The notes beneath the pieces were generated by a model that was not told the DNA's origin, searched no databases, and saw only the letters and a program-made list of their open reading frames with translations. 64,000 nucleotides of DNA from an uncultured Chloroflexia bacterium (GTDB lineage: Bacteria > Chloroflexota > Anaerolineae > Promineifilales > UBA4811). Every line of letters begins with the position of its first letter. Positions within the stretch are counted from its first letter, which is position 1. This document shows, piece after piece, positions 1 through 64,000 of the stretch. The DNA is taken from contig CAVPPE010000002.1 of NCBI GenBank assembly GCA_963707345.1, positions 1,015,028-1,079,027 on the forward strand, written 5' to 3'. The translations under genes were made by a program, and so were the position numbers.

Positions 1-538
1 ACTGCTGACCGTCACACACAATGTCCCGGTCGACATGGTGGGGGTCTCCCTGCTGCTGATTGGTGCACTGGCTTACGCCGTCCAACTGGTCATCGGTCAG
101 CGGGTACTGTACGACATCCCCGCCCCTACCATGACCCTTTACTCCATCAGCGCCATGGCACTGGTCGTGACCATCGCCTGGCTGTTAAACGGCGGTCCAG
201 AATTTACCAGTCTGAACAGCGCGGGCTGGGAGGCCCTGCTGGCTTTTGCCGGGGTGACAACGCTCTCCCGCCTGACTCTCTTTCAGGGGGTGAAAAAGAT
301 GGGCAGCGTGCAGACCGCGATGCTGGGGGTGAGTGAAGTTCTGGTGACTGTCCTGTTCGCGATGCTGTTCTTGGGCGATGTGCTGGTGACCCAACAGTGG
401 TTTGGTGCTGGACTGATGGCATTGAGCGTGATGCTACTAGTTGCCGAAAAGGACGTGCCCCGCCTGGTCCCCTTCCCACTCATTTCTTGGGTCGTCAAAC
501 TCTCTATGCTTACCCAGCGGCGCGGCCGGCAAAAATAG
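1..538 (+). CDS. EamA/DMT-family transporter, C-terminal half (5' end upstream of window)
   Basis: The frame of ORF 35..538 stays open back to nt 2. Strongly hydrophobic multi-TM sequence of EamA type. Stop TAG at 536-538. Confidence 0.7.
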   Translation, partial: LLTVTHNVPVDMVGVSLLLIGALAYAVQLVIGQRVLYDIPAPTMTLYSISAMALVVTIAWLLNGGPEFTSLNSAGWEALLAFAGVTTLSRLTLFQGVKKMGSVQTAMLGVSEVLVTVLFAMLFLGDVLVTQQWFGAGLMALSVMLLVAEKDVPRLVPFPLISWVVKLSMLTQRRGRQK

Positions 539-539
539 C

Positions 540-1346
540 CTAGCCGTACCCACCCCCGGCCGGGTTAATCGCAAAGGCATAGCCCGCTCCGCGGACGGTG
601 ACAATCAGTTGGGGATCGGCCGGGTCGCGCTCCATCTTTTGCCGCAACCGGCTGACGTGAACCCGCACTATCCCACTCGCTTCTTCCGGCTCGCAACGAT
701 ACCCCTGCACCCGATAGACCAGCTCTTCCGCGCTCACCGGCCGGCCCTCGGCCGCCATCAGGCACGACAGCATCTCGAATTCGGTCGGCGTCAGCGAGAG
801 GGGGGCTCCGTCCAGCATTGCCGTGCGTCGATCCAGGTTTAGCGTCACCCCCCGGCCGCGCAGGATATGATCCTCTTCCGTGGCGCGAGCGGGGCGTTCC
901 ACCTGCTGCAGCACCGCCAGCGCGTCCGCCAGCGCTCCCACCACCGACTGGCGTTCCAACGCCTGTTTCCGCTTATCCAGCGCCTGTTTCACACTCGTAA
1001 GGATCGTTTCGGGCAGCGCCGGCTTGAGCAAATAGTCCGAAGCGCCCTGCCGCAGCGCCTCGACGGCCGTGTCTAACGTGCCGTACGCGGTCAGCAGCAC
1101 AAACTCGGTCGCCGGCCGGAACTCCTGGCACGCAGCCAGCACTGCCAACCCACCCACATCCGGCATCTTCAAGTCACAGAGCACCATATCAAAATCCTGC
1201 GCCTTGAGGAATTGGATAGCGGCCGCACCCCCATCTACCGCCATCACCTCGTACCCCTCCATCCGCAAAATCTCCGCCAACGAGAGGCGGGCCGAGCGCT
1301 CGTCGTCCACCACCAAAATCCTGCCTGGGCGCGCCTCTTGCCTCAT
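540..1346 (-). CDS. OmpR/PhoB-family response regulator
   Basis: Receiver domain (ILVVDDE, DMVLCDLKMPD, LLTAY, DYLLKP) plus winged helix (LTPTEFEML...VHVSRLRQK...TVRGAGY). The start overlaps the kinase stop (ATGA at 1343-1346). Confidence 0.9.
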   Translation of the reverse strand: MRQEARPGRILVVDDERSARLSLAEILRMEGYEVMAVDGGAAAIQFLKAQDFDMVLCDLKMPDVGGLAVLAACQEFRPATEFVLLTAYGTLDTAVEALRQGASDYLLKPALPETILTSVKQALDKRKQALERQSVVGALADALAVLQQVERPARATEEDHILRGRGVTLNLDRRTAMLDGAPLSLTPTEFEMLSCLMAAEGRPVSAEELVYRVQGYRCEPEEASGIVRVHVSRLRQKMERDPADPQLIVTVRGAGYAFAINPAGGGYG

Positions 1347-4279: not shown

Positions 4280-4423
4280 CTTCCACCACCTCTACGTGTC
4301 ATACGACGCGCCATTCACGCCTGTACTATACCAAACAAACGGCACAAAGGCGAACACACGCAAGGCCATCGTGTGCACTCAAATGTTGTGAGTGACCCGA
4401 CTCTAGCAGGATGGTGATCGGGG

Positions 4424-4471
4424 GGGGGTAGGGATGGGGCGCTTCGCGCCCCATCCCTACCCCCTGTTTTT
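4424..4471. repeat. REP-like perfect palindrome (19-bp stem, loop TTC) followed by a T-run on the + strand
   Basis: gggggtagggatggggcgc (4424-4442) pairs perfectly with gcgccccatccctaccccc (4446-4464), then tgttttt. Related hairpins occur at 7944-7980, 26981-27007 and 44473-44499. Confidence 0.6.
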
Positions 4472-4510
4472 CTTCCGCGACAACAACTTTTGCGCGCACG
4501 CAGGCCATCT

Positions 4511-4939
4511 CTAGCGGATATGATCGATCACCATGCGGGAAAAGCTCGGGTCGCGCCGCAGAAAACGAATTTCCACCGGGTCTCCCGGTGTCAGTCGCCG
4601 GTACACGGATAGCGGCACCTGCTGCCTGGCCGCATAGCCATCGCCAAACTGGTAGGCCACGTAGCAGTCCCGACGGTCTTCGTCGTCGGAGCGGGTCCAC
4701 TTTCCAATGATTGTGCCCTTGGCCGTGACCCCTTCGCGATCCAATTCCTGCGCCACCGGAAACTGGCGGGCGGCTACTACCCCTAACACCAGTAACAACA
4801 GGCCAATGAGACCGAAAACAACTACCGTGGCCGTTATTTCGCCCATATCGGCCGCTCGCCAAGCGCTGTACCCGATCAGAATCAGCCCCAATGCGACCGA
4901 TAAGATCATACGCACCATGATTGTGTTTCCAGCGGGCAC
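4511..4939 (-). CDS. DUF3592-like small membrane protein
   Basis: Two N-terminal TM helices, then a beta-rich domain ending ...YVAYQFGDGY...GDPVEIRFLRRDPSFS, which is the DUF3592 pattern. Confidence 0.55.
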   Translation of the reverse strand: MPAGNTIMVRMILSVALGLILIGYSAWRAADMGEITATVVVFGLIGLLLLVLGVVAARQFPVAQELDREGVTAKGTIIGKWTRSDDEDRRDCYVAYQFGDGYAARQQVPLSVYRRLTPGDPVEIRFLRRDPSFSRMVIDHIR

Positions 4940-5183
4940 GGCTTTTTGCTTGGGCCGGCCGGAACTCGATCCGCCTCATTTCCGCATCTCCTTGTGTGCT
5001 TGCAACCTGGTCAGCTGGAAAATCTGCCTGACCACTCCATTAAAGCGGCACTCCTCGTGCTCCACAACCATTATACTGGATTTTGTCCAGCCTTGGCGCT
5101 GCGTCCCCAGGACGATTGCTCCAACCTGGTTTCGGTGGCGCAATTTCTAAAAAAGTGGGAACGGGGGGGGCTGCCCGGCCGGC

Positions 5184-6435
5184 CTAAAAATCGGTGAAGC
5201 AGATTGGCCTATCGGCCGCCTCAAAGAGCGCGCCAGCCGCTTCCACGTAGGCGGGGTCGGAGATGCGAGCCAGTCCGTAGCGAACCAGGTGCCGGAAGGG
5301 AATCGCTCCGACCAGCAATGCGGACCAGTCGGCCACATCCCACCAGACTTCCACTTGGTGCGGCGCGGCCGGGTCCATCACCTGCGCCGCGCCATCGCGG
5401 AAATGGATCACCGTGCTGCCGTGGTTGGACGGGTAAAAACTGTCCGCGACCGTGACCTTGAGTTGCAGCGTCCGGCCGCCAAAGCTGTGGCTTGCCATCT
5501 GCGCCAGCAGCCCGGCCGTGTCCACCACCCGATACATGATCCCCACTCCGGAGACATTGCTCTGGTGGTAAACTGAGGGGATGAGGTGGTTCGAGTTGTC
5601 GCGCGGGTCGCCCAGCAGGCGAAAGATGTGCTCGTCCTGCGTGTTGAGCACCACGTGCCGGATCTGATCCGCCTGACTGTGCAGGAAGGTGCACAGCTCG
5701 GCCAGCGCCTCCGGCGTCTCGTAGATCAACTCGCGCACCACCAGGTCGTTCTGGATAAAGTGAGACCCCTTTTCAAAGGCAAACATGAGGTAGCCCTGCG
5801 CCAGGTTGCCATCCTTGACTCCGACGACGTGGACATTGGAGTTGGTGAACACGCGGTCCCAATCAGACCGGTTTCGCGTCATTAGCCCGTGGGTGCGCGC
5901 CAGGAACTCGGTCATAGCAAGCCGCGGCCGCTTCGCGGTCGGCCTCACCCAGCAATGCCACGCGGGATTTGGACGACCCCTTGGGAAAGCTGTCCGGCCG
6001 CAGGCGATACTGGTGTATCTGCGAACCAAGCCCAAAGCCCATCCGCTTGTAAAAGTCCGGCCGGAAGGGGTACAGCACGGCCAAATAGGCCTCGTGTTCC
6101 CTACACCAATCCAGAAAAAAGGTCATCAGTTCCTTGGCTACCTTTTCCTTTTTGTGTGCCAGGTGGACCGCCACCATCCCTAGCCCTCCGGCCGGGATGC
6201 GCGTCTCGAACATCTGCATCCGGAAATCGTGCAACCGCATGCCACCCACCAACTCGCCATCGCGGAAGAGGCCGTAATAGTCCACCGTCGGGTTCTCATG
6301 TTGGGTGGCAACAAAGCGCTTCAACACCTGTTCCTGGGCCTCCTCGCCGAACAGATCGAATCCCGGGTACGCACGGGCCGCAATATCCACATAGTTGGCC
6401 AGATCATCATCGTTCAACTTTCTAATCACGCTCAT
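5184..6435 (-). CDS. Eis-like GNAT N-acetyltransferase with C-terminal SCP2-like domain; one apparent frameshift near 5910
   Basis: ORF 5863..6648 (from MSVIRKLNDDD at 6435) carries the GNAT core (GGLGMVAVHLAHKKEKVAKELM). ORF 5184..6035 continues the same protein in another frame (EFLARTHGLMTRNRSDW...). The ATG overlaps the larA-like stop by 1 nt. Confidence 0.7.
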
Positions 6436-8017: not shown

Positions 8018-8042
8018 CCCTGAAGATGAAATTGCTCCTATT

Positions 8043-11683: not shown

Positions 11684-11743
11684 CAAAACCGAACATGCGT
11701 GCTAAACTCGCCGCAGTTCGATTCGCTAGACAAAGAGGGTAAC

Positions 11744-12823
11744 ATGGCACGTTCGTCTAATTCGGGCAGCGGGGACGCCCGCACTCAAATCTTGGACCAG
11801 ACTATTTCATCCATCATCAAGCGGTTTGGAGATGGCGCCATCATGAAATTGGGTGAGGTGTCCCATATGGATGTGGAAGTCATACCTACCGGCTCGCTCT
11901 CTCTGGACATCGCGCTGGGTGTAGGCGGCATCCCCCGCGGCCGGGTGATCGAGATTTACGGCCCCGAGGCCTCGGGCAAAACCACTATCTGCCAGCACAT
12001 TGTCGCCGAGGCACAAAAGGCGGGCGGGCTGTGCGCCTTTATCGACATGGAACACGCACTGGACCCTACCTACGCTGCCCACTGCGGGGTGGACGTGGAA
12101 AACCTGTACATCGCCCAGCCGGACACCGGCGAACAGGCATTGGAAATTGCCGAAGCGCTGATTCGTTCCGGCACCATGGCCGTCGTGGTCATTGACTCCG
12201 TCGCTGCACTGGTGCCGCGGGCAGAGATTGAGGGCGAAATGGGTGATGCCCACATGGGATTGATGGCACGGTTGATGAGCCAGGCCCTGCGCAAACTCTC
12301 CGGAGCCATCATGCAGAGCAATACCGCCATGATCTTTACCAACCAGCTCCGCGAGAAAATCGGCGTGATGTTTGGCAGTCCGGAAACGACTACCGGCGGT
12401 AACGCGCTCAAGTTTTACGCCAGTGTGCGTTTGGACGTGCGGCGGATATCCAGCATCAAATCAGGAGGGGATGTCATCGGTTCGCGCACGCGCGTGCGAG
12501 TGAAGAAGAACAAAGTGGCGCCTCCATTTGGAGAAGCCGAGTTTGACATCATGTACACCTGCGGCATAAGCAAGGCGGGCGATTTGCTGGACCTTGGCGT
12601 CGAATTGGGCATTATTGACAAGCGCGGCTCGTACTATCGCTACAACGAGGAGTTGATCGGCCAGGGCCGGGAGAACGCCAAGCAGTTTCTGGAAGAAAAC
12701 CCAGAGGCGGCCGCCTCTGTGGAGCAAGGTATCCGTGCCGCAGCGCAACTACCCGGCCGCCACCGGTTGCCAGCACACGATTCCGACGACGACGACAAAG
12801 ATAGCGACAATTCAGACGACTAG
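11744..12823 (+). CDS. recA: Recombinase RecA
   Basis: ATG 11744 (MARSSNS...). Walker [10 protein letters not shown] and canonical RecA core ([41 protein letters not shown]). Acidic tail. Confidence 0.97.
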
Positions 12824-35270: not shown

Positions 35271-36731
35271 GTAACTGTTCAGGTTTAGGATAAGGAAGTT
35301 GATGGCGGGGCGGTCGCGGGTGGGTGCCGCAACGCATTCAAGCACTGGAGAAAGGGATTCTGGTCGCGGGCGGCCCAGGTGCTAAACAGACTGGCGAGGG
35401 TGAGACGTGTTTTGGTCCCCTCATCACTGCGGGAGCCGCCGCTTATCTTGCGAATGACCACCAATGGACGAAGGCTGCGTTCCGCCAGGTTGTTGTCTGC
35501 TGGCAAATTGGGCACGAGAACAAACTGGAATAACTCAACTTGATGCCGCATGATGCGCTTGGCCAACGCACAGCACGGGTGTTCATAGCTCAAGGCGTAC
35601 TGCCTGCCCAGGACACCGGCTCGCGTGAAAAGGTCTTCGTATTCAACCTGACGCTCTTGGGGGGTGGCCGCGGGGTGTTCTTTCAGCCAGCTTTGGGCAT
35701 CGTCATACAGCTTGCGCACCCCCTTCGCCCACGTCACTACCTCGGCCGTCCCCGCATGGGTTTCCTTGAGTTCGTGCAGGTCTCGCAACAAATGGGCCCA
35801 ACAGCGTTGGTGCTGGCAAAGGATCAGGTTGGTTGCGGCGTAAAAGTCCGTCACCAAGTGCCCATCGAAATCGTCCCCCAAGATGCGCTTGGCCACTTGA
35901 TGCCCTCGGCTCTGATCACGCTCAAAATAGCGCACCGCTTCCGGTCCATCCGTCACCAATGCCCAGATGTAACCGTTCTGCCCATCCTCCCGCCACCCCG
36001 TTTCGTCGCCGTGCACCACCTTGCCGGCCTGCATTTCTGCCTTCAGCCCGTCTGCTTTGCTCTGCAATTGCTTCCGTGCTGCGTGGGTCAGCTCGACGAT
36101 CTCCCCTACCCCCAACCGCAAGTGGTGCATTGTCTCTCAATACGCCTGCACCTGCCGCACCGGCAGCCGGAGCGTCGTCCGCAAGTACGCTACCAAACTC
36201 GCTATCCGCACTCCTATCCGCCTTTGCCCGATCACCTGACCGCTCAAGTCCAACTTTGGACTGCGCCATCCCTCGCAATGGGGACACCAGCGCTTGATCA
36301 CCTGGTGCTCGATCACCTCTACCGGCTGTGGCTCGGGGATCTCGATCACCTGACGCGTGTAATCCACACTCTCGCCACGCAAGCGGTAATGGCAGTCTGG
36401 GCAGTTATCCAAGGCATGCCGCTCAATTCGGGTTGCTTCTTCACGCTTGCGCGACCGATTGTGCTTCGCTGCTCGTTTCTTGCGCGGCTTGGGTGGATCT
36501 GTGCGGGGAGGTCGATTCCGTTTGACAAACGGAGGCAGCTTTTTCTTTTGCTGCTCCAATTCGGCAATCCGCGTCGTTGCTGCCTGCAACTGGTTCGTCA
36601 ATTGAACCACCTGCTGCTGCAATGCAATCACCTCGCTGTGCAGCTTCTTGTTCTCAGCAAGGATCGCCTCAATCTCTTCCTCGGTCACGGCGGCAAGTCT
36701 AACACATTCCGGGGTAACTGTGAACAGTTAC
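35271..36731 (-). mobile_element. IS66-family insertion sequence, single-ORF (ISBst12-like) type, 1461 bp
   Basis: 11-bp perfect terminal inverted repeats gtaactgttca (35271-35281 and the reverse complement of 36721-36731). Perfect 8-bp direct repeat gtctgaac on both sides (35263-35270, 36732-36739). Confidence 0.8.
35285..36688 (-). pseudogene. IS66-family transposase interrupted by an in-frame TGA (36139-36137)
   Basis: ORFs 36137..36688 (leucine zipper, zinc-finger CPDC...CPHC) and 35285..36130 (DDE core) are in the same frame: ...VRQVQAY*ETMHHLRLGVGEIVEL. Confidence 0.8.
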
Positions 36732-36748
36732 GTCTGAACTGAGACAGC

Positions 36749-36772
36749 GCGGACCCACGGCCGTGGGTCCGC
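36749..36772. repeat. 24-bp perfect palindrome centred on CGGCCG
   Basis: gcggacccacgg|ccgtgggtccgc, 10 nt from the IS66 target duplication and 20 nt upstream of the dipeptidase promoter. Confidence 0.6.
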
Positions 36773-38151: not shown

Positions 38152-38303
38152 CGGGCAATCCTGTCGCTCGCGGGTGGCAGGGTCTGGCCCGCTATGGCCC
38201 GGCCGTGCGCCCCCTGCCTGCTGCGCCAGGGTGACGGCTAGCCGGCCGGAACTGGCTGGCAGGAACCCTACTGAAACTCATCTTCAGCCTTTCGGTAGAG
38301 CTA

Positions 38304-39497
38304 GCGTAGTCCCAAGCAAGATACTTGGGAAAGTGATATACTTCCAGGTATGAGAACACCAATCTTTGTCCGAGAACTGACACCAGATGAACACAGGCAA
38401 TTGAAAGCAGGCCTGCGCTCATCAGACGCCTTTGCTGTACGCCGCTGCCAAATCATGTTGGCCAGCGCACGAGGTGAAATGGCTCCGGCAATCGCCCAAT
38501 TCCTTGGCTGCAATGACCAGACTGTCCGCGACGCGATTCGAGCCTTCAACGAACGTGGCGTGGAGGCTCTGAAACAAGGTTCTCGCCGGCCCCACAACAC
38601 CCATCCGGCTTTCGATAATGAAGGGGCGGATGCACTGCGTGGCCTGCTGCATCGCAGCCCGAGGGAATTTGACAAGCCAAGTAGTCTGTGGACCTTGGAA
38701 CTGGCAGCTGAAGTCAGCTTCGAGAAGGGTCTGACCGCCCAACGGGTCAGTGATGAAACCATCCGCCAGACACTGCTCCGTCTGGGTGTGAAATGGAAAC
38801 GGGCTAAACATTGGATCACCAGTCCAGATCCAGGGTATGAGCGAAAAAAAACGCACGGGACCGGCTGATTCGCCTGTGCCAAGCGAATCCAGATTGGGTA
38901 CAGGGTTTCTGCGATGAAGTGTGGTGGAGCCGTTTTGCCCAGCCCAACCTGTCGTCTTGGGCCGACCCTGATCAGCCACTGCGCTTGGTTGAAAAGACAA
39001 AGGCTAAAGACGACCCTGACCCCAAAGCCCTGGCTTGTTACGGCATATTGCTGCGGTGGACGCAAGAAAACGGACAAACCGACGAGAAAATCCGGCTGCG
39101 TTTCTTGGATGGACGTCCGGTCAGCGATATCACGATTCAGTTTCTTGAATGGTGTTGTAAGAGGTTGGAAGCGATGAACAAAGGTGTCCTGGCTCTGATA
39201 TGGGACAATGCATCTTGGTACATTAGTAAAACGGTGTGCTCCTGGATACGGGAACACAATCGCCAAGTGAAGCGCGATGGCCAAGGGGTGCGTACTGCGT
39301 AGCGTGGCCTGTCGCCTGCCAGTCAAGAGCCCCTGGCTCAACCCGATCGAACCCATGTGGGCGCATGGCAAACGGCGGGTGGTTGAACCGAATAGAGTAC
39401 TCTCGACCGACGAGTTGGCGGAGCGCATCTGTGCTGCCCTTGGTTGTGAGCATCAAGCGCATCTATCTATTCCCGAAAATGTCTCCTGATCCTGCAC
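38304..39497 (+). mobile_element. IS630-family insertion sequence (boundaries approximate)
   Basis: TA dinucleotides at 38302-38303 and 39498-39499 within CTAG on both sides. Imperfect inverted repeats, about 19/32 matching. Length of about 1.19 kb is typical for IS630. Confidence 0.55.
38350..39489 (+). pseudogene. IS630-family transposase: -1 slippery site A8 (38844-38851) plus a second disabling frame break near 39290
   Basis: HTH part (ORF 38350..38868) ends ...ERKKTHGTG*. The -1 frame continues KKNARDRLIRLCQANPDWVQGFCDEVWW (DDE part, 38919..39302). The last segment (39277..39489, SPWLNPIEPMWAHGK) is again in another frame. Confidence 0.75.
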
Positions 39498-39500
39498 TAG

Positions 39501-42444: not shown

Positions 42445-42608
42445 TCTCTCTCCACAGATGCAGACAAGCTCAAAGCGACCGGCAACGCGGCGTTGTGGTT
42501 GGGCGGCCGCACAGGTGCAATATATTCACAGAGTCTTTCCGTCGGCGCAATAGTACAAAGGATTCAGCGCGCGAATCCGATTTGAAATATCGTGACATCC
42601 TCTCCCCA

Positions 42609-43756
42609 CTAAAGTAAGGAGCTTCTACCGACCGAAGCTGACGCTTCGGAGCACTTTACGGTAAGGCGCTGTCCGCGCCCGAGAATATTCAAAGCGGCGT
42701 TGTGATCTCTGTCGAGCACAAGACCGCAATCAGGACAAACATGCAGACGTTCGGAGAGGGGCTTTTTAACCAAACAGCCACACCCAGAGCAGTTCTGGGA
42801 CGTGCGGTGGGGATCAACCTTGACCACTGTCTGACCAGCATTCTCGGCTTTGTAAGACAGCATCGCAAGTAGCCCCATCCCGCGTCACCCATGCTCTTGG
42901 AGACGTGGCTGCGGCACAGGCCACTCAGGTTCAATTGCTCGAGGGCGATAAACCCGAAGCGTCTGACCAGTTCAGTCGAAACCTGATGATGAAAGTCGCG
43001 GCGCTGGTTGGCAATGTGTTCGTGCCAGCGACGTATCTGGCGCGTCAGTTCGCGATATGGGCGACTGCCTCGCTGGCAACGAGCGCGGTGGCGTTGCAAG
43101 ACCGCCAGCTTTTCTTCCGATGCACGGAACCAGCGCGGGTTGTCGACTTGTTCACCCGTAGACAGGGTGGCAAAGGACGACAGGCCCATATCCATGCCAA
43201 CATCGGGGCCCATGATGTCGGCCGGTTCAGGGTCGGGCAATTCAAGCTGGAGGCTGGCGTACCAGTTGCCAAGCTTGTCCCGCTTGAGGATGACCATCTT
43301 GATCTTGGCGTCGTCTGGAAGAGCGCGGTGCTGAAAGATGCGCAGCAGACCAACATGCTGGATGTAGAGTCGATCCGCCTTGAGGCGGATACCATCGCCG
43401 TAGAGATAGCAGACCGATTTGAACCAGCCCTTCCCTTTGAAGCGCGGGTAGCCGGGTTCCGCACCCGCCTGGACGCGCCTAAAGAACGCCTGGAAGGCTT
43501 TGTCCAGGCGGCGCAAGGTCTGTTGGATAGACGAGTAGTTGAGCCAGGCTGCATCCTCGTCAAAGGTGCGCAGCTCCTTGAGCTGCTTGGCCTGGTCACG
43601 ATAGTAGAGACTGATCCGGCACTTTTGCCACGCTTCGCGGCGCTCTTGCAAGGCCGCATTGTAAAGCTGGCGATGCGCTCCGCAGTCGAGCACGCGGTCA
43701 AGCGTCTGGCGCTGCTCATTATTCGGGTAAAGGCGGTATTTGTAACTCAGCAACAT
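42609..43756 (-). pseudogene. tnpB: TnpB (IS605 OrfB) RNA-guided nuclease homolog; one frame break near 42875
   Basis: LSYKYRLYPN start. RuvC D (DVGMDMGL), E (FIALEQLN), zinc finger CSGCG...CPDCG, final D (DRDHNAALNI). The break fits a lost G in tgggg(g)cta. The ATG abuts the tnpA stop. Confidence 0.85.
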
Positions 43757-44140
43757 TTACTTGCCCGCTTGTGCCTCGATGTAGCGGCGGATCGTCTCAG
43801 CCGACACGTTGCCAGCAGTGCCCACATAGTAGCTGCGTGTCCACAGCGACGGCCGGCGGCGGTTGAGCCAGTCAAACTCTTGGCGCAGTTCGTGGCTGGT
43901 ATGTCCTTTGAGGCGGTGCATGATCTGGCGCACGGCCAAAGTGGGTGGGAACCCGGCAAACAAGTGCACGTGATCGGGCTGAATCTGCAGAGCGATCACG
44001 TCACCTTGACCTGCTGGCGAACCAGTTCGTCCAAGCGCTGGGCAACCGCATCGGTCAAGAGTGGGCGGCGATACTTGGGACACCACACCAGGTGGTAGAT
44101 TGATATTGTAGACCGCGTGCCGCGTTCGTTTGGTTTGCAC
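43757..44140 (-). pseudogene. tnpA: IS200/IS605 Y1 transposase TnpA; two compensating frame breaks (near 44098 and 43990)
   Basis: Frame A gives MQTKRTRHAVYNIN... and ...DVIALQIQPDHVHLF...SYYVGTAGNVSAETIRRYIE. The middle segment YHLVWCPKYRRPLLTDAVAQRLDELV is in another frame (ORF 43996..44205). Confidence 0.75.
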
Positions 44141-51135: not shown

Positions 51136-54100
51136 ATGCCTCAACTGGATGTCAGAATCCTTGGTCCCTTTCAAGTCGCCAGAGGGAAAACCACTGTAGC
51201 CCGGTTCGAAACTGATCCGACGCGGGCGTTGCTCATTTACCTGGTGGCGCACCCCGGAACGCCCTTCCACCGGGAAGCACTGGCTGACTTGCTCTGGCCC
51301 CATCGGCCGCGGGCCGAAGCCCTGCACGCCTTGCGCCAGACGTTGAACCGCTTGCGCAAGGCCATCGGTGATCGGGAAGCAGAGCCACCATTTCTGCACA
51401 TCAGCCGCCGGACCATCGAATTCAACCCGGATAGCGACTACTGGCTGGATAGCGAATCGTTCGTCAGCCTGGTTTCTGCCACGCGCCAGCACCGGCACCG
51501 TCGCCTGGAAGCCTGCCCCAGTTGCCGGGAGCAATTAGAGCAGGCATCCGCGCTCTATCGTGGCGATCTGGCAGCTGGCTTTTTCCTCGGCAGTCTACCT
51601 TTCGAAGAATGGCTTTTGATGGAACGCGAGTATCTCCACCGGAGGGCGATGGAAACCTTCTATCAGTTGGCAGTCATGCACAACCGGCGGGGAGAATATG
51701 AGCAAGCCCAGCGTTATGCCCGGCGGCAGACCAGGCTGGAGCCATGGGGAGAAGAAGCCCACCGTCAGTTGATGCTGGCTCTGGCACACAGCGGCCAACG
51801 AAGTGCAGCGCTGGTCCAATACCAGAGCTGCTGCCAAACCCTGATGGACGAGTTGGGTGTGGAACCAGAAACGGCGACCAGAAAGCTTTACGAGCAAATT
51901 CGTGATGGCGATTTGGAGCAGAGCACGACACCACCGCACAACCTGCCGGCGCATCTCACCAGCTTCATCGGCCGGGAAACTGAATTGGACCAGATCGCCG
52001 AATTCCTAAACAACCCTGACTGCCGCCTGCTGACCCTTCTGGGATCGGGGGGGATTGGCAAAACCCGGCTAGCCCTGGCTTCTGCGCAGCGGTCCCTGCC
52101 CTACTTTTCCGATGGGGTTTGGTTTGTCCCCCAATTCAACGACACCCAGAAACCGGCCGATGAGCAGGTCCCCGATCTGCTGGCAACAGTGATCGCCGAG
52201 GCGATGAACTTGACCCTCTCCGAAAAAGACGGCCCCACGGCACAATTGCTTCAAACGCTGCGAACCAAGGAGGCGTTGTTGATCTTGGATGGCTTTGAGC
52301 GCTGGGTCACGGCCGCAGACCTGATTCTGGAGATGCTGCGAGCAGCACCTGGTTTGGTGGTGATGGTCACTTCGCGAGCGCAACTTGACGCGCAAGCCGA
52401 GCAGATTTACCGCGTGGCCGGTCTGCCGGTGCCCCACGATGTTAACGACCCGGCCGCGGCCAACTGTGACAGCGTGCAACTGTTCGTGGATCGAGCAGAA
52501 CGCGCGGCTGGGGTTTTCACCCCAGACCTGACCGCGATTGGTCAACTGTGCCAACTGGTTGAGGGCTTGCCGCTGGCAATCGAATTGGCTTCCGCCTGGG
52601 TAGAAGCCTTGCCCCTGGCCGATATTACCGCCAAATTGGAGCAAGGTTTGGTGCTCTTGTCGACCACACGCCGCGACATCCCGGTTCGCCATCGCTGTTT
52701 GCACGCCGTCTTTGAAAGCTCCTGGCAACTGCTCTCCGAGAGCGAGCGACGGGTGCTAGCCCAACTCACCGTCTTTCGCGGCGATTTTGGCCGCGACGCG
52801 GCCCTGGCTGTGACCGATGCCAGCCCGGCCGAATTGACCAGCCTGGCAAACAAATCGTTGGCCCGACGCATCGCATCCGATCGCTACACACTGCACACAC
52901 TTTTGCGCCAATTCGCTATGGAAAGGATGACGGAGAAGCCCGCCCTGGCCGAAGCGTACCAGCGCCACAGCGACTATTACCTGGCATTCATCTGCAAGAG
53001 GACGGCCGCTTTCCAAGGTAGCGAACCCCAGCAGGCAATAGCCGAAATCCAGGCCGAGATCGCCAACATCCGCCAAGCGTGGCAATGGACCGTAGGCCAA
53101 CTCGACACGGACCAAGACCCTCAACCTGCTCTGACGGCCCTGGCCCAATGCACGCAGGGCTTGATTCAGTTTTACACGCATCGAGGGCCGAAACAGGAAG
53201 GAGAACAGATCTTCCGAATGGCCGCCGGCCGGGTGCAAACCGTTTTACAAAGACAAGGGAGCGCATCCGTCACCGCAGAACAACTGACCGCAACCTTACA
53301 GGCGCTATCCACGCTACTCACCGCCCAGGGACACTTTCTGCTGGCACTTGGCGACCACAAGCGTGCCCTGACCGTACTGGAAGAAGCCCACACCCTTTCC
53401 AGGAGAGTCGCAGCCGTCCGGCCAGGTACTGACCTCGCAGAGCGGGCAATGCTGCTGGTCAACTTGGGCACGTCGTACAATCGATTGGGTGATTATCCGC
53501 TGGCGACCGAGCATCTTGAAACAGGGTTGAACCTGGCCCGTCAGGCGGATGCCCCACACATAGAGATCACGGCCCTTATTACTCTGGCACAGGCGGCATC
53601 GGAACAGGGAACCTTCGACCAGGCCAGACAGCATCTGGAAAAGGTATTGGAACTGGCTCGCCAGCTAGGGGATCGGATTAGTGAAGGCGAGGCCTTGACC
53701 ATGCTGGGTTCCGTGGCCTGGAGATGGTGTGACTTGGAGCGGGCTGATGAGTGTTCACAGCTAGGTTTGGCCATTTTCCGCGAGCTTGGCAACCAGCAAC
53801 GGGTTTCCAGGCTGCTCAACGTTTTGGGGATTCTTGCAATTCTGCGCGAAAACTATGATCAGGCCCAGGAATACTACCAGGAGGGCATATCACTCGCCAA
53901 AGAAATCGGCGACCGTCAAGCAACGGCCGATATGCTCAACAACCTGGGTTACATTTTCCACCATTGCATCGAGCAGTATGAAGCAGCCAAAAGATGTTAC
54001 CACGAGTCAATGCTCATCGGGCGAGAGACGGGCCACCGGCACGGGGTAACCAGCACATTGAGCAATCTGGGGCACCTGCATGTACTGACGGGAGAGCACA

Positions 54101-54414
54101 ACGCCGCCTGGAGCTACTTGCAGGAGGCATTGAACGAGTTTGTCGCCATCGGCGTGGTGCCATTGACCTTGGACACATTGATTGGCGTGGCCCAGTTGTG
54201 GGTTGAAACTGGAAGGGCTATCCCGGCCGCAGAGCTGCTTGGGTTGGCCCTCAACCATCCAGCCGTAGAGGCCTCAAGCATTCAGGCGGCCGAGCCGATC
54301 CTTGCCAAATTACGTGAAGCAGTGCCACCTGAGCAATATGAGCAGGCAACAGAACACGGCAAGGCGCTCAAGTTGGATGACGTAGTTGCCAGGCTACTGT
54401 CGGAGAAGGATTGA
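51136..54414 (+). CDS. SARP-like regulator: OmpR-type winged helix + BTAD + NB-ARC/STAND ATPase + TPR array (1092 aa)
   Basis: N-terminal LDVRILGPFQV...TRALLIYLV. BTAD block (LYRGDL...EWLLMEREYLHRR...GEEAHRQLMLALAHSGQRSAALVQY). Walker A GSGGIGKTRLA. Multiple TPR units (LGDYPLATEHLE, QGTFDQARQHLE...). Confidence 0.85.
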   Translation: MPQLDVRILGPFQVARGKTTVARFETDPTRALLIYLVAHPGTPFHREALADLLWPHRPRAEALHALRQTLNRLRKAIGDREAEPPFLHISRRTIEFNPDSDYWLDSESFVSLVSATRQHRHRRLEACPSCREQLEQASALYRGDLAAGFFLGSLPFEEWLLMEREYLHRRAMETFYQLAVMHNRRGEYEQAQRYARRQTRLEPWGEEAHRQLMLALAHSGQRSAALVQYQSCCQTLMDELGVEPETATRKLYEQIRDGDLEQSTTPPHNLPAHLTSFIGRETELDQIAEFLNNPDCRLLTLLGSGGIGKTRLALASAQRSLPYFSDGVWFVPQFNDTQKPADEQVPDLLATVIAEAMNLTLSEKDGPTAQLLQTLRTKEALLILDGFERWVTAADLILEMLRAAPGLVVMVTSRAQLDAQAEQIYRVAGLPVPHDVNDPAAANCDSVQLFVDRAERAAGVFTPDLTAIGQLCQLVEGLPLAIELASAWVEALPLADITAKLEQGLVLLSTTRRDIPVRHRCLHAVFESSWQLLSESERRVLAQLTVFRGDFGRDAALAVTDASPAELTSLANKSLARRIASDRYTLHTLLRQFAMERMTEKPALAEAYQRHSDYYLAFICKRTAAFQGSEPQQAIAEIQAEIANIRQAWQWTVGQLDTDQDPQPALTALAQCTQGLIQFYTHRGPKQEGEQIFRMAAGRVQTVLQRQGSASVTAEQLTATLQALSTLLTAQGHFLLALGDHKRALTVLEEAHTLSRRVAAVRPGTDLAERAMLLVNLGTSYNRLGDYPLATEHLETGLNLARQADAPHIEITALITLAQAASEQGTFDQARQHLEKVLELARQLGDRISEGEALTMLGSVAWRWCDLERADECSQLGLAIFRELGNQQRVSRLLNVLGILAILRENYDQAQEYYQEGISLAKEIGDRQATADMLNNLGYIFHHCIEQYEAAKRCYHESMLIGRETGHRHGVTSTLSNLGHLHVLTGEHNAAWSYLQEALNEFVAIGVVPLTLDTLIGVAQLWVETGRAIPAAELLGLALNHPAVEASSIQAAEPILAKLREAVPPEQYEQATEHGKALKLDDVVARLLSEKD

Positions 54415-54474: not shown

Positions 54475-55287
54475 CTACGAGTTCAAGACGGGAACGATGA
54501 CGACCAAATCATAGGCCGCGTGGAACAAGACCGGACCTACCAGGCTATCGTATTTGATCATCGTATTAGCGCCAACAATCCCCAGGCAAAAAACGACCAC
54601 GCCGAAGACAATTCCCCCGCCCGGGAAATCATACGTGGCAAAGAGATGCGATGCTCCAAAAACCGCTGCTGTCACGATGATAACGGCATTCCCCCCGATT
54701 AACCTTTCGTACTTGCGGAGGAAAATCGCCCTGAACCATAGCTCTTCCATGATCGAGTTGGCAAATATGAACAATAGCAGCCAAGGTACTGAAGTAAACA
54801 ACGACGAAACCAAATCACCCGAACCTGCCTGTGTGACAACGGCGATCACGGCAAAAACTGCAAAAGACACAAGCCCGAAAACGATCCCTGGCACCAGCTT
54901 TCCCCTGCTCAGATAAATCGACTTCCATTCTTCCTTCGCCAGCAATGTCAACCCCACAAGAACCAGCATAACATGGATGAACTGGGAAAGTTTATCTATG
55001 GCCAGGTCTTGCAACGGGGAGGCCGTATCGATGTGGATGTTCAATATCCCGGAAGAAAGGGCCAGCAGGGCTGCGGCCACAGTAAAAGGCGCATACGCTT
55101 ACGGCCAGTAGCAGGCTAGCGAATCAATTCTCTTCAGAACCACAGCGACGAGCAGGAATATGCCCGTAGGCACAATGTAGTAGACTTGGTTCCTGTTCGT
55201 CGGGAAGACAGAGAAATAGGGGTTCCCCAACACGAATATTGCCAGCCCACCCAGGAGGAACCAGGTCAAGAGGATTGTCTTCTTCAT
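54475..55287 (-). pseudogene. CPBP-family (CAAX/Abi-type) intramembrane protease, split by an in-frame TAA (55101-55099)
   Basis: MKKTILL... (ATG 55287) reads in the same frame through ...LACYWP*AYAPFTVAAALL into ORF 54475..55080, which carries EELWFRAIF, GASHLF, FHAAYDL. Confidence 0.6.
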
Positions 55288-56815: not shown

Positions 56816-56843
56816 GGTTGGCTCCTGGTTCCTGGAAAACCGG

Positions 56844-58685: not shown

Positions 58686-58868
58686 ACCAGCTCCTGAACG
58701 TATGCCAAAAGACGAGGTTGTTCACTCCGCTGAAGCGCGAGTATATCCGGGGTGTGTCATCTGTCAAGACAGTCACACTCAGTTTCCTGCTGACCCTCCA
58801 TCCCCCACGGCGGGGGAAATAAGGCATACGCTAGGCAGGCACCACTGATTCTTGGTTTCCTTGAGCCA

Positions 58869-59120
58869 GACTTTGAGAGCGGATGATAACAGGTAGTACA
58901 GGTCACAATTCAAGTATTGGGGGTACCCTCGCGGGCCCCCACCCCGGCCCCCCCTGTGCCGCCCCGGCCGGGGCGGCACGTCGTTTCCGCGCTGCGCGGC
59001 GCAGCCCGGCCGGGCGGGCATTGTGTCCACCGTAGCAAAAGGAGCTGCATGAATCCACGCGCCCACACAAACCGCCAGCGCACCGCTGGCAACCCCAATC
59101 GTGAGGCCGTTTACCATCGT
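58869..59120 (-). pseudogene. Decayed 3' fragment of a paralog of the 55736..56815 gene
   Basis: The minus strand reads ...LRWTQCPPGRAAPRSAET, compared with ...QRWVRADPPGRDARET* in the intact gene, followed by the shared downstream repeat. No intact ORF. Confidence 0.35.
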
Positions 59121-59379
59121 GGTGGGCAGCCTTTTTTGTTTCCCCCTAGTTCACACAAAGGAGTATACTGTGTCAACGTTTCAAACCCCCGAAGCCATCG
59201 TGCTCGATTTGATCTGGTGTTGTTATCTCGTTTCTTGACACAGGTGCCGCAAAATTCCCGATCTATCGAATGATGAGGGTCAAGTCAGCGGGAGGCGGTT
59301 CGCAGCCAGCCCCCCGTGCGTCAGGACGATGGGCGGCGAGTTTTGTCGGATCCAGGCAAATCAAAGACAGATCATGCTC

Positions 59380-59522
59380 GTAACTGTTCACAATTACCCC
59401 GTGAACCCGGAGAAATCGAGCCTTGTTGCCGTTCACAGCGCCTACGTCAGCCGTTTTGGCGCCCCTGAGATGGCCAAAATGGGCTGCGCCGCCGGTTTTT
59501 TACCCCAACTCTGAACAGTTAC
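59380..59522. mobile_element. 143-bp MITE with IS66-type termini (copy 1)
   Basis: gtaactgttca (59380-59390) and tgaacagttac (59512-59522) are identical to the IS66 terminal repeats. Perfect 8-bp target duplication tcatgctc (59372-59379, 59523-59530). The first 22 nt match the IS66 right end (gtaactgttcacaRttaccccg). Confidence 0.75.
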
Positions 59523-59826
59523 TCATGCTCTCCGATTTTGGCGTGGAGCACGAGTTCAATTCAATCCAGATGGCATATTACTGCACTAAACATCCCGGTA
59601 GATAGTCATCACCGCAGCACTTGGTCGTACATTGAACACGACCATCGCATCCTACCCGGCCGCGCGCGGTTCTGTTACCCATCCGCCACTGGCCTATCTC
59701 CCCACATCAAGGTTGTATCGGTATCGGATAATGGATTCATTAACCCTTCCGATACCAGCACCCAACAAGCCCTTTACCCGATGTGAGCCTGCCCTCCCTG
59801 CTCAAAGCCCCCTCGAAGGTGAATAG

Positions 59827-59985
59827 ATACCCCTGCGCCTGGCGGCCGAGGGCTCACCCTACAGCCAGGAATGCCTCAGCCTCCTGGCGCGCAACGGCCG
59901 GTTGGAAGCCATCAAGCGCAGCCGGGTCTGGCTCACGACCCACAAAGCGCTGGAAACGTACCTGCAATCTGTCGCTCAGCGCTGA
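59827..59985 (+). pseudogene. Remnant of a small excisionase/MerR-like HTH protein (no start codon; preceded by an in-frame TAG)
   Basis: Reads IPLRLAAEGSPYSQECLSLLARNGRLEAIKRSRVWLTTHKALETYLQSVAQR*. TAG at 59824-59826 lies in the same frame as ORF 59632... Confidence 0.3.
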
Positions 59986-60089
59986 GGAGCGGTGAGACGG
60001 CCGGAAAGTGCTGCTGTTCCCCAACCGGATCTCCCTACCGGTAGGGATGGGAACTTGCGATTATTCCACGACCTGTTGGATATAGGTTG

Positions 60090-63000
60090 CTAATGCCCGA
60101 GTTCAAGTGGCACCAGGCTGCGTTTCATCATCTGCAACGCACGCTCTGGGTCAATGTAACCGTACAGTCCGCCAACAATCGAAACCATGTAAGCCGCATC
60201 CATCAAAACCAGGCCGCGCGGCCGCAGAATCCAGCTTTCTTCTTCGTTGTAATGGGTTCCGGCCGCAATCAGGCGCAGGTCACGCCCAAAATCGCCCTCT
60301 TCCATGCATTTGTGGTAAATGGTGCCACCGATGAGCAAGGTGGTACAGGGTTGATTGAGAAAGTTGACCCCATATTGCAGAAAGTAGGTGTCTGTTTCCT
60401 TGACATAGCCCAGGTTGCGGCCGGTAGTGGCCGCCATGATTTCTTTGGCCAGGAACGAGCGTGCCGCGTTTTCCGGCTCGGATGTTGGCAGCGCGTGGGG
60501 GTTGGCCGAGAGCCAGTCTAGGTACCGACCTAGAGCGATGTCTAACCGGCCATCTAGCCGCCGCACAAAGCTGTCAAATTGATCGTCTGCCGGCCGAATG
60601 CCAGGATACTCTTCCAGTAGAAAGCGCTCCATATCTCGTTTCATCAGCCCGTTTTGAAACCGCTCCAACTCTTTGATGTTCTCCGCGTCGTAGGCCAGAC
60701 CATACTTTCCCTCGACGCGCCGGTAAGCCAATGGGGTATTGGGGGTTTTGAGGATAGTTCGCTTGACCTTACGCACGGGATCGTCGCCCTGATAGTCGTA
60801 GAGGGGATTATCGCCCACATTGGAGTAAAAGTCGGTTGTTGCCCCGCCAATGTCAAGTGCCATGATATTCCCGAAGTCCTGGCTCGTTGCCGTACCCTTT
60901 GGCCAGCAGATTGATGCCTCGGAACGCGGCGCGCGGGGTCGGGATGAATGGAGCGGTCATATACTCTTCAACAACGTCAAAGCCCTTGGCGCGAATGATG
61001 ATCGTCTGAAAGAGGTCCCGAATGGCCTCATTAACGACCTCGATGTGGAACGTGTTGATCTCCGGCATCACGTTGGGGGTAAGGCGAATATCGACTCCCT
61101 CGGCCTGGAAAATCCGTTCAACCTCGTCGCGGATGTCTTGGTTGCCCGCGTAGATGACGGGCACGCCATAGCGAGTGTAGGTCGCTGCCCTGGCGTGCTT
61201 GGCCAGCATACGGGCGTTATGGAGTTGGGTCTGGGTGTCCCCGCCCCGATCCACCCCGCCGGCTTGCAGGATGATCTCGGGCTGATCCTGCTCGTAGATT
61301 GCCTGTGCCTGCTCCTCGGTGAGCATGCCGGCGTAGGTGTTAACCAGTTTGGCTCCGGCCGTCAGGGCCGCCAGTTCGGCCGCAAAACCGCTCTCCTCCT
61401 TGACCATAGAAACCGTCACCATCTTGAGCCCGCCTTTGGCGCTGGAACAGGGCAACTTGAGGTCGAATTGGGCCATCGCTTCTGCCAACGGTTCCCAGTC
61501 GCCGCGTCGACGGCATGCATCCAGCACACCCAATCCGTCAGCCAGCGACTCCCTCAGATCATCGACAATGGTGGGTACGTAGCGCAAGTCGAATTCTTGG
61601 GTCGCGGTGTCAAAGGTGCCAATCTTGGAAAAGGTGCTGCCAAAATCCACCACCAGCACACGCTTATTGTCCAAATCGGCCGTGCTGTGGATACCCACCT
61701 GCCGGCGGGCTTCAGCCAGCACATCTTCGTCCACTGCCTCTGCCGTTTCAGTGATGTACAGGTCCTCGTCTGCGTGGCTGATGCTCTTGTCAAAGAACCA
61801 GGGACTCCTTGCACGAACCCGGTCCACCCGGTCAATCTCGTCCTCAACCTTTTCGCCCAGAAATTCGTCGATCAGGCATCCCCCATCCATGATTTTGGTG
61901 CGGCACTTCCCCACCGGTTCATAGCGCTTGTCCAGCACCGTGATCTGAGGAGCCTGAAACAGCCCAACCTGAAGCGCCAGGTCCAGCGTATCGGCGCTAA
62001 TCACGCCGCATTGACCAGTTGGATAGTTGGCCTCGTCGACAAAACTGAGCAACATGGTTTCATAGTTACGTTCCCATTCGCGAGGATGGTCCCGCTTGCG
62101 TGCCGCCTCGGGCGAGACAGCCCACTCGAAAAAGTTGTCCAGGTTGACCGGTCCTTCGTAGCCGCCCAAAAGCGCCAGATGAAAGATATTGTACATTGCC
62201 CCGCGCTGAAGCCTGCGTTTGCGGCCGAGCAGCCGCGGGTCCGCCCAAATATTGGGGCGCTCATCTCGATAGTAATCTTCAAAGACCTGCTTGACGATGT
62301 CACAGCTTTCGATGACATCCTCGGCCTTGGCTTCGTGATGTGCCTCGGAAAAGCTGACCACATGGACAATGTCTGGCTCCATATACATCTGCCAATAGGT
62401 GGAGACAGCCAGGTGCCCTTTGGCTTTGTCGAGGTTGGGCGGAAAGTCGGAGAGACCGCCACGAGTTTCCTTGATGATGCGGTAATCAAAGTGGCGGGTC
62501 AACGGCTCGATCAACTCGTAAGCCGCCTGGAACTTGGCCAGGTCGTTCATCCCCGAAGTTCCCGGTGGCAAGTCGAACATCATCTGCATCACGTATTGGC
62601 GGATTCCAGTTTTGAGTGCCACGATGCCGCATACAACGTGGTCCGCCACCAGTAGATCGTCCGTGCTGTTGCGCAACTGCCATTGGTGCGGATCGTTGAT
62701 CTCGACCGGCTTGTCGATAGAGGCCCACCAGCGCATCACCTCAAAATGCTCGTCAAAGCTGTCGCGGATTGAGATGGGGCCGCGGCCGTCCAGCTCGTTG
62801 TAGTAAAAGATCGGCACGGCCGGGAACGGCATGCGAAATGCTCCTTCATAGAGTTTGGCCAGTTCAACCAATTCGTCGGTCCCTGAGTAGATGCGGGTCA
62901 TTGGGTAGTTGCCGCATCGAGTTGCATCTTTCAGCCGCTGCAAATCCTCAATAGAACGGATAGGGGCGCCGCCCTGCCCCCTCAGGTACTTGTCCGGATC

Positions 63001-63771
63001 CTCTTCGCCGCGCACAAACTTGGCCAGGTATTCCTGCGCTGGCTGATCCGGCGCCAACGAGACGATCTCCAGGCATTCGGCTTCCGCCAATTTGGTGACG
63101 GCTACTATGGTTGGCTCGATAGAGTCGGCCGCAATGCCGATGTGGGCCCGAATGATCGGCCGCCCCTCCAACTCGCGCACCTGGACAATGCGATCCACTA
63201 GTGTATCCGCCCACTCGATTGCTTTCGTTTCAGTCACAACAGTGGTGGCTTGAGCAAACGCCTCAAGCTCCTCCATCGTGATATAGTCATCCACCACAAG
63301 ATCAAAGAAGCCCTGAAAAGCCTCAATATCGCTATAGTTTTCGGCAATCTCATCCAGATCAAAATGCCGATCCTCAGGCGAGGTGAACTTGTCCTCCTGG
63401 ACCGCCAAGCCGGTCATCGCACGGACCAGGTTGGCGGCCGGCCGCAGTCCACCAAAAGCGTAACGAATGCCGCTCTCACGCGGCAGAAGATGATACAGAG
63501 CCGCATTTTGAATAAACTCGCTGATGAGCTTGTCGACATGCAAATCACCCAGGCGCATCGAGATGGCAACAATCTCCGGCCGGGACTCGCGAATCTTGTT
63601 GATCACATCCTCAATGGGCACGGCCGGGCCCAGCTTGACGGCCATGAAACCCTCTTGTCGGTCCTCCATCCACTCGGCAAATGACTCGACGCCCAGAGAA
63701 TGGACGCAGTCGCCAATTGAGCCAGCCATTACGCGCCGTTTGATGGTTGATTTTTCCGCTTTGGTACCCAT
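60090..63771 (-). CDS. Fused B12-dependent mutase-like protein: GlmS-like B12-binding domain + GlmE-like barrel + GlmL/MutL-like ASKHA module; one frame break near 60865-60890
   Basis: ATG 63771 with AGGAGG upstream. N-terminal VMAGSIGDCVHSLG...EIVAISMRLG. Middle GGLSDFPPNLDKAKG...VVSFSEAHHEAKAEDV resembles the GlmE block GGFPQDESKAFG...VKTPHEAIGIPT. C-terminal VLVVDFGSTFSK ... (frame change) ... ALDIGGATTDF is GlmL-like. Confidence 0.65.
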
Positions 63772-63904
63772 GGAATCTCCTCCTAAATGGTGATGATTAC
63801 CTCGATTTGATTGACCCATTTCGTATCCAACGCAAATTGAACAAGCTCTGCCACGCTTTTCAGTCCATAGCTCTGCGGGACACGGGCCTCGCACTGGTCC
63901 CGGC

Positions 63905-64000
63905 CTAAATAATCCTTGCTGATCCTCTACCAGCCCAGGCAATGATCGTATCCATCATGGGAGTTTGCACCCCCGCCATCTCACCGACCGCCCGGCCGAC
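63905..64000 (-). CDS. 3' end of an upstream gene (partial); the C-terminus resembles the ketopantoate-reductase/opine-dehydrogenase family
   Basis: The minus strand from nt 64000 reads VGRAVGEMAGVQTPMMDTIIAWAGRGSARII*, with TAG at 63907-63905. Too short for a firm call. Confidence 0.3.
   Translation of the reverse strand, partial: VGRAVGEMAGVQTPMMDTIIAWAGRGSARII

Follow-up and report, generated by a model that had tools for sequence, protein, structure and literature searches.

CGGCCG in an uncultured clade of Anaerolineae-type Chloroflexota: a candidate lineage-specific iterated palindrome, possibly spread by a methylase-linked drive

The known cases of highly iterated palindromes (HIPs) all come from one phylum, the Cyanobacteria. 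Why HIP1 is present there in thousands of copies has been debated for about 30 years, with biased mismatch repair, chromosome structure and a DNA-uptake tag as the proposed reasons. The described words are HIP1 (GCGATCGC), GGGATCCC, TCGATCGA, GGCGCC, GCSGC, RCCGGY and CAGGCCTG (Elhai, 2015, PMC4390886; Xu, Lawrence and Durand, 2018, PMC5861425), and each of them is found together with a methylase that is specific for the word itself or for its core (PMC4390886). Here, we describe an excess of the hexamer CGGCCG in a stretch of 64,000 bp (hereafter the window; 61% G+C) from an uncultured Chloroflexia bacterium placed in the Anaerolineae (assembly GCA_963707345.1, contig CAVPPE010000002.1, positions 1,015,028 to 1,079,027). 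The cyanobacterial HIP class is the closest known phenomenon to this excess. The same resemblance had been proposed in an earlier reading of the window made from its letters alone (the sequence-only reading), and our analysis bears it out: CGGCCG is a GC-rich palindrome and the top 6-mer, every reading frame and the noncoding DNA are enriched in it, and silent sites come near to saturation with it.

The likeness extends to several other properties. As with HIPs, CGGCCG is the commonest and the most over-represented word of its length, lies in all frames and between genes, is lineage-specific and is poor in recently acquired DNA. It also looks like the target of a type II methylase, with a GC step inside it, and some of the alternate HIPs are likewise 6-mers made of G and C only. 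HIPs are expected at about 1 copy per kb or more, and we counted 5.3 copies per kb for the window and 1.5-5.3 for its syntenic relatives. On the other hand, CGGCCG is not among the described words and its host belongs to Chloroflexota (Anaerolineae-type), not to Cyanobacteria. At 5.3 per kb it is 2-5-fold denser than HIPs, which reach about 0.2-2.7 per kb. Its excess over an order-2 Markov expectation is 4.3-fold, as against 16-317-fold for the octamer, a comparison between a 6-mer and an 8-mer; the 4.3 lies below the 16-fold cut-off of Xu et al., which was set for 8-mers and is hard to reach for a 6-mer at 61% GC. Furthermore, site conservation between relatives does not clearly exceed the prediction from independent saturation, no saturation appears at about 1 site per kb, and the cognate methylase is a predicted one, with no gene for it in the 64-kb window. 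We found no publication that describes an excess of CGGCCG or any HIP-like word in Chloroflexota, although coverage of subscription journals was poor and absence is not proof. We rate CGGCCG an addition to the HIP class, with a new word and a new phylum.

Uptake sequences offer a second point of comparison. Those of Pasteurellaceae (uptake signal sequences, USS) and Neisseriaceae (DNA uptake sequences, DUS) are 9-12 nt long, non-palindromic and often paired as terminators. CGGCCG resembles them as a short genome-wide word under a weak uniform drive, frequent in native and rare in foreign DNA; it differs from them as a 6-bp palindrome with uninformative flanks (at most 0.09 bit) and no excess of extended hairpins. 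Uptake sequences have also been discussed for HIP1 (bioRxiv 10.64898/2026.06.24.733823).

Abundance of CGGCCG and occupancy of silent sites

An exact count gives 339 copies of CGGCCG dispersed over positions 1..64000 of the window, the palindrome having no strand, where base composition predicts 50.1 (observed/expected ratio, O/E, 6.8). CGGCCG ranks first of the 4096 hexamers both by count and by O/E. The runners-up by count are the overlapping words CCGGCC (194) and GGCCGG (185); the remaining G+C-only hexamers have a median O/E of 0.84, and GGCC occurring outside CGGCCG is not enriched either (O/E 0.84). Under Markov nulls the O/E falls from 6.7 (order 1) to 4.3 (order 2), 2.6 (order 3) and 1.33 (order 4). 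The last value is low because the order-4 null uses the pentamers CGGCC and GGCCG, 75% of which lie within CGGCCG, and the corresponding z of 5.2 is the largest among all hexamers. The hand counts of the sequence-only reading (8 copies in 541-1380, 7 in 8041-9000, 7 in 44844-46000 and 0 in 54475-55344) turned out to be exact, and the excess over base composition that it had put at about 6-9-fold is confirmed (6.8-fold). It had also proposed counting all hexamers against Markov and codon-shuffled nulls, and under both kinds of null CGGCCG keeps its excess.

The copies share little beyond the six bases. Flanking positions carry at most 0.09 bit each, with a weak C at -1 and a weak G at +6, and no 12-mer holding the CGGCCG core occurs more than four times in the window. 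Uninformative flanks and the lack of a recurring longer word indicate that the unit is a 6-mer and not a longer repeat element. A dispersed repeat of the REP or MITE type (repetitive extragenic palindrome, miniature inverted-repeat transposable element) was considered and rejected, as no extended sequence is shared and 294 of the 339 copies lie inside native coding sequences. Spacing matches random placement (coefficient of variation 1.03, with the longest gap within the random range), no regular spacing of the copies was detected in the 64-kb window, and in 4-kb bins the O/E lies between 4.0 and 10.0.

Palindromes of 6 bp other than CGGCCG are in many cases strongly under-represented in the window. 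These include GAGCTC (O/E 0.10), CTCGAG (0.24), GGTACC and CGTACG (0.29 each), CCCGGG (0.34), GGGCCC (0.36), GGATCC (0.38), GGCGCC (0.40) and CAGCTG (0.43), and CCTAGG does not occur in it at all. This under-representation suggests past exposure to several restriction systems.

Codon-aware tests were based on a gene map of 46 genes that covers 85% of the window and was checked against Pfam and NCBIfam. The 294 copies in native coding sequences fall into frames 0, 1 and 2 as 50, 165 and 79. Shuffling synonymous codons within genes leaves 87.8 +/- 7.4 copies (O/E 3.35, z about 28), and a codon permutation null leaves 54.9 (O/E 5.4). As the sequence-only reading had claimed, the word is present in every frame and in intergenic DNA: under codon-aware nulls each frame is enriched 2.7-3.8-fold, and noncoding DNA (56.5% G+C) holds 42 copies where 5 are expected, an 8.6-fold excess. 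About 63% (0.63-0.64) of the CGGCCG-compatible peptide contexts in native genes use the word. In frame 0, 50 of the 73 Arg-Pro dipeptides are written as CGGCCG (11 expected from codon usage), as are 165 of the 267 [SPTA]-Ala-[VADEG] contexts in frame 1 (42 expected) and 79 of the 111 [NNC]-Gly-Arg contexts in frame 2 (27 expected). The compatible contexts are not themselves enriched, the 73 Arg-Pro dipeptides comparing with 72 expected from amino-acid composition. Silent sites are close to saturated with CGGCCG, and protein sequences are left untouched.

These controls bear on the possibility that the excess is a by-product of codon usage, of amino-acid or dipeptide composition or of GC content, or else an artefact of assembly or base-calling; they refute it, and we leave it next to no probability. 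The constituent codons GCC, CCG, CGG and GGC are indeed common in a genome of 61% GC, and an order-4 O/E of only 1.33 could be read in the same direction. A by-product of composition would not, however, survive synonymous shuffling at 3.35-fold or reach 8.6-fold in noncoding DNA.

The whole hexamer as the unit of the bias

Where five bases match the word and the sixth falls on a silent third position, the motif base is found in about 90% of cases (50/55, 165/187 and 79/87). At the silent positions of CGGCCG, alternative bases are purged to an O/E of 0.23-0.35 for transitions and 0.06-0.14 for transversions. The purge is alike at outer, middle and inner positions, three symmetric classes that together make up all six, and it affects all three alternative bases. 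Counted globally, the one-mismatch neighbours of CGGCCG show no depletion (O/E 0.56-1.53); this seemed at first to oppose conversion, but depletion emerges only when the count is restricted to silent positions. In noncoding DNA, words one base off have an O/E of 0.94 and words two bases off an O/E of 0.98, the one-off pool being too large there for its depletion to be visible, and a stationary model in which one bonus rewards the full word predicts just such values.

The shape of the purge bears on classical Dcm/Vsr very-short-patch repair, in which a T:G mismatch at a methylated C is always corrected to C. CGGCCG would suit such a system as a typical target of a 5-methylcytosine methylase, just as CCWGG in E. 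coli is a palindromic methylase target raised by directional correction, and the transition neighbours TGGCCG/CGGCCA and CGGCTG/CAGCCG are mildly raised overall (O/E about 1.5), as if fed by deamination. But Vsr acts on one mismatch type at one position, and its effect on CCWGG in E. coli is far smaller, by several-fold, than the 7-9-fold seen here. In the window, all alternatives are purged at all position classes, transversions more than transitions, T variants are not specially depleted, and no vsr gene is present in the 64 kb. Since the purge covers every mismatch type and every position of the word, Vsr-type repair is excluded as a sole cause as far as we can judge, and we regard it as extremely improbable; a Vsr-like repair gene, for which the sequence-only reading had advised a search, is accordingly disfavoured in that role.

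A control on codon pairs of the form xCN GCN locates the bias in the complete word. When the next base is G, both silent bases fit CGGCCG in 165 of 256 cases (64%); when it is not, they fit in 45 of 275 (16%), which is the product of the marginals (0.37 x 0.44) and speaks once more against a by-product of composition. Intact and broken contexts contrast likewise in frames 0 and 2. The complete hexamer CGGCCG is the unit of the bias, and one broken flanking base abolishes it. Expressed as an odds boost, that is, the odds of the full word relative to its broken-context expectation, the effect is 9.3 in frame 1, 7.7-12.9 in frame 2, 8.6 in noncoding DNA and about 20 in frame 0, as against 1.0 in insertion sequence (IS) copies. 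A single parameter, an odds boost of roughly 9-fold, fits frames 1 and 2 as well as noncoding DNA; frame 0 is stronger. A boost of about 9-fold corresponds to a natural logarithm of about 2.2, the magnitude of codon-bias selection or of biased gene conversion.

The force is also uniform along the window. Potential sites are occupied at 0.63-0.69 regardless of whether another copy lies within 50-400 bp, so that over these distances no self-limitation by nearby copies was detected in the window, and occupancy is similar over about 40 native genes (about 0.5-1.0). The force acts independently at each site, blind to coding status and, for frames 1 and 2, to reading frame. A uniform, weak force that is independent at each site and graded among relatives (see below) might also come from a context-dependent mutation or repair bias that needs no methylation, such as a polymerase or glycosylase preference, or a GC-biased conversion with sequence preference. 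We consider this improbable. The need for all six bases fits a sequence-specific reader rather than a local mutational context, and the median O/E of 0.84 for other GC-only hexamers, like that of GGCC outside the word, shows no broader preference; generic GC-biased conversion would not pick one of 64 G+C-only hexamers.

Acquired DNA, related genomes and neighbouring features

Three IS copies reside in the window. The first encodes an IS66-family transposase split in two open reading frames (ORFs) at 35285..36745 on the minus strand (PF03050, PF13005), with 1 CGGCCG against 0.89 expected. The second is the frameshifted remnant of an IS630-family transposase at 38300..39450 on the plus strand (ORFs 38350-38868 and 38919-39302; NCBIfam NF033545, E = 2e-17); it has no CGGCCG and lies in the largest CGGCCG-free gap of the window, from 38243 to 39585. 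The third is an IS605/IS200-type element at 42689..44140 on the minus strand, consisting of TnpB (42689-43756; PF01385, PF12323) and a Y1 TnpA (43757-44140; PF01797), and the 1651-bp interval around it (42600-44250) holds 2 CGGCCG against 0.97 expected. Pooled, the IS copies carry 3 CGGCCG, close to the 2.4 expected from composition and far from the 16.5 that native enrichment would give (Poisson P = 6e-5), and 3 of their 18 potential sites are occupied, compared with 0.63-0.64 in native genes (binomial P = 5e-5). The force has not acted on the resident IS copies, in which the word stays at chance level.

The scarcity of the word in IS copies, first noted by the sequence-only reading from hand counts, is therefore exact (IS66 1, IS630 0, IS605 2), and its proposal that CGGCCG distinguishes native from recently acquired DNA holds within the window, also when peptide context is controlled for. 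Its remark that a SARP-like gene is intermediate stands as well: the regulator at 51136..54414 on the plus strand (Trans_reg_C + BTAD + NB-ARC + TPR) contains 11 CGGCCG and occupies 11 of its 25 potential sites, against 0.63 (binomial P = 0.04). A CPBP/Rce1-like protease gene of low GC (0.51) at 54475..55080 on the minus strand occupies none of its three potential sites.

The proteins of the window are singletons at 90% identity. The closest named relatives of its RecA belong to Anaerolineales and to Chloroflexota metagenome-assembled genomes (MAGs), at 76-87% identity, and five relatives (RecA 78-88% identical) have RecA neighbourhoods syntenic with the window from about 540 to 23000. CGGCCG is the top hexamer in the related loci L081-L084 (O/E 3.3-7.9), and its density in syntenic relatives is 1.5-5.3 per kb. 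As a measure free of composition and aware of codons we used the odds ratio between intact and broken contexts, and as controls about 50 G+C-rich loci of other phyla obtained from matches to the DEAD-box helicase (about 50% identity). This context odds ratio is 8.2 in the window and 9.5, 5.1, 4.9, 4.4 and 3.3 in the syntenic relatives, 1.4 and 2.4 in two more distant RecA relatives, and 0.3-2.6 in the control loci. The series shows that the trait is clade-specific and graded, and GC-rich controls without the effect again contradict a by-product of composition.

Independent assemblies from JGI, ENA (L082 being ERZ21869602 ctg94805l) and Logan show the same bias. The recA gene itself (11699..12823, plus strand; Pfam PF00154, E = 2e-130) is a native marker with three CGGCCG sites, of which the one at 11938 forms the codons for the conserved Gly-Arg in the PRGR motif. 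Several genes of the window are split, which suggests an imperfect assembly and could be taken to favour an artefact; nevertheless, CGGCCG in the PRGR codons of recA, together with the same bias in independent assemblies, excludes a base-calling artefact, and the frameshift junctions do not coincide with CGGCCG, a coincidence that would have hinted at base-calling errors linked to methylation.

The word has the opposite fate elsewhere in the class. At a 21-kb locus of another Anaerolineae MAG (L035, JAHDLB010000001.1), only 2 CGGCCG are present (O/E 0.07, odds ratio 0.06, P = 4e-14). So strong an avoidance is evidence for a CGGCCG-reading enzyme in other members of the class, and it would be expected of a genome with a CGGCCG-cutting restriction system. 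Restriction-site avoidance, as known from genomes with type II restriction-modification, concerns the same kind of word; the clade of the window shows the opposite sign and accumulates CGGCCG.

Comparison of orthologues indicates how the sites turn over. In codon alignments of the window with its relatives, third positions of identical amino acids are 41-49% identical, and the window and the relatives each occupy 0.31-0.70 of their own potential sites, the relatives by themselves 0.31-0.67. At jointly possible positions the two closest relatives share 35 sites with the window against 30.1 expected, and 36 against 32.7, whereas no sharing in excess of independence is seen for the two that are more distant; the divergence of all available relatives blurs this comparison. 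Low identity at third positions combined with nearly independent sharing suggests that CGGCCG is kept as a density in each lineage and not at fixed inherited positions. The small sharing excess could reflect shared ancestry, mild site heterogeneity or some site-level selection.

Two side observations concern the same relatives. Over the same aligned regions (window positions 540-24600), the window has more CGGCCG-compatible contexts than each of L081-L084 (173 v 148, 126 v 107, 21 v 16 and 80 v 55). This surplus hints that the force may also shift amino-acid sequence slightly. In addition, TCGATC is the most over-represented hexamer in L081, the closest relative (6.7-fold, 29 copies), and is also strongly over-represented at two Chloroflexia MAG loci, L049 and L052 (8.6-fold and 7.3-fold). 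The window shows no such enrichment, its O/E for CGATCG being 0.67. Chloroflexota may thus have another iterated word in TCGATC, which recalls the cyanobacterial TCGATCGA.

Some local features complete the description of the window. The sequence-only reading had pointed to palindromes centred on CGGCCG. The two that it cited are perfect, one of 24 bp (GCGGACCCACGGCCGTGGGTCCGC) at 36749..36772 and one of 22 bp at 58957..58978, but the extension is not general: over all CGGCCG sites, palindromes and hairpins extended beyond the 6-mer are at chance level. The 24-bp palindrome adjoins the IS66 element, 4 bp past its end, upstream of an M19 dipeptidase gene, and has no T-run. The 22-bp palindrome lies within a 1.4-kb stretch (58686-60089) that has no ORF of at least 120 aa and carries 6 CGGCCG copies, a native-like density. 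Rfam gave nothing in the window, and neither a credible match nor a convincing terminator was found in 58686-60089; the stretch may be a decayed gene.

The split genes, in which adjacent ORFs lie in different frames, are found at 20965-22722, 22770-24613, 31825-33715 and 5184-6648; two encode ABC transporters, one TypA/BipA and one an acetyltransferase (GNAT+SCP2). Either indels of the assembly or genuine pseudogenes could explain them. In L081, L082 and L084 the orthologues of the ABC transporters are single and intact, the junctions in the window lying near 21655 and 22010, and none of the split-gene junctions that were checked coincides with CGGCCG or with long homopolymers. At 4326-6648, an ORF of unknown function and the split acetyltransferase stand between a GAF histidine kinase and a LarA-like gene, and the latter two are adjacent in L081 (3452-3649). 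Finally, two genes at 60090-63942 match the Pfam family 'MutL protein' (PF13941) and have a B12-binding domain, which marks them as the MutL associated with glutamate mutase and not the one of mismatch repair. With an overlap of 11 bp, they are probably genuine separate genes that are coupled.

A proposed CGGCCG reader between drive and selection

A directional force acts on the whole of CGGCCG wherever protein coding allows, and it is uniform, weak, independent from site to site and independent in each related genome. We tentatively favour, as a reading that falls just short of an even bet, that CGGCCG is a HIP specific to this uncultured clade of Anaerolineae-type Chloroflexota, spread by a drive tied to a CGGCCG-reading methylase. 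Because all six bases are needed, a sequence-specific reader is indicated. The molecular drive would come from a resident CGGCCG-reading system, most likely a CGGCCG-specific cytosine methyltransferase; CGGCCG looks like a type II methylase target, and methylases of the Dcm type with predicted CGGCCG specificity are common (PMC6471742). The methyl mark would bias mismatch correction, or recombinational replacement, towards the strand with the full site, in the manner of a HIP-type ratchet. One-off variants at silent positions would then be converted into CGGCCG and losses of the word reverted, and individual copies would need no function of their own. The methylation-directed repair ratchet proposed for cyanobacteria would likewise act at any position of the word (PMC4390886).

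Several points weigh against this reading. The searches with Pfam and NCBIfam found no methyltransferase, Vsr, nicking enzyme or restriction gene within the 64-kb window. In the ratchet model as published, saturation sets in near 1 site per kb (PMC4390886), and with 5.3 sites per kb and no drop in occupancy near existing sites it would need modification. The odds boost in frame 0 (about 20) exceeds those of the other contexts, and the two closest relatives share slightly more sites with the window than under independence (odds ratio 3.9-6, P about 0.02). Lastly, a conversion drive and weak uniform selection predict the same equilibrium pattern, so that sequence data cannot separate them.

The last point gives its main rival to the methylase-linked drive, namely that weak and uniform natural selection, not neutral drive, maintains CGGCCG as a genome-wide tag. 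The tag could be a self-DNA mark that aids uptake or recombination of DNA from kin, a role now suggested for methylated HIP1, or the site of a nucleoid or segregation protein with a benefit from copy number. Besides predicting the same equilibrium, selection would account for foreign IS DNA without the word, just as uptake sequences are rare in acquired DNA, and for site sharing slightly above independence. The conservation of HIP1 has been taken as evidence for selection (PMC5861425), and HIP1 was reported to boost transformation in a way that depends on methylation (bioRxiv 10.64898/2026.06.24.733823); both count in its favour. However, no heterogeneity among sites is seen: occupancy is alike in the 40 or so native genes and independent of neighbours, and spacing is random. 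As a tag, a word of 6 bp would also have little specificity, relatives share sites almost as independence predicts, and no competence or binding-protein gene that could be linked to CGGCCG was found in the window. We therefore judge selection of this kind unlikely.

A wider reading, which we regard as doubtful, is that the clade evolved a HIP-type system independently of cyanobacteria, in which a CGGCCG-reading (methylating) system would drive or select the word to near-saturation as a mark of self-DNA, graded among sister lineages, with the same word restricted in another member of the class.

Whatever its cause, the density of CGGCCG has practical consequences. In these genomes the word sharply marks, by composition, DNA that was acquired recently, and such dense sites matter for cutting, cloning and base-calling the DNA of these organisms. 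For the debate on HIPs, an unrelated lineage with a different word amounts to an independent replicate. The force can be expressed as one number from sequence, the odds of intact versus broken contexts, and this number is about 3 to 9 among the syntenic relatives, about 1-2 just outside the clade and of opposite sign in another member of the class. If the clade does hold an independent HIP-type system, this natural comparative series could settle whether biased repair, biased DNA exchange or selection lies behind such words.

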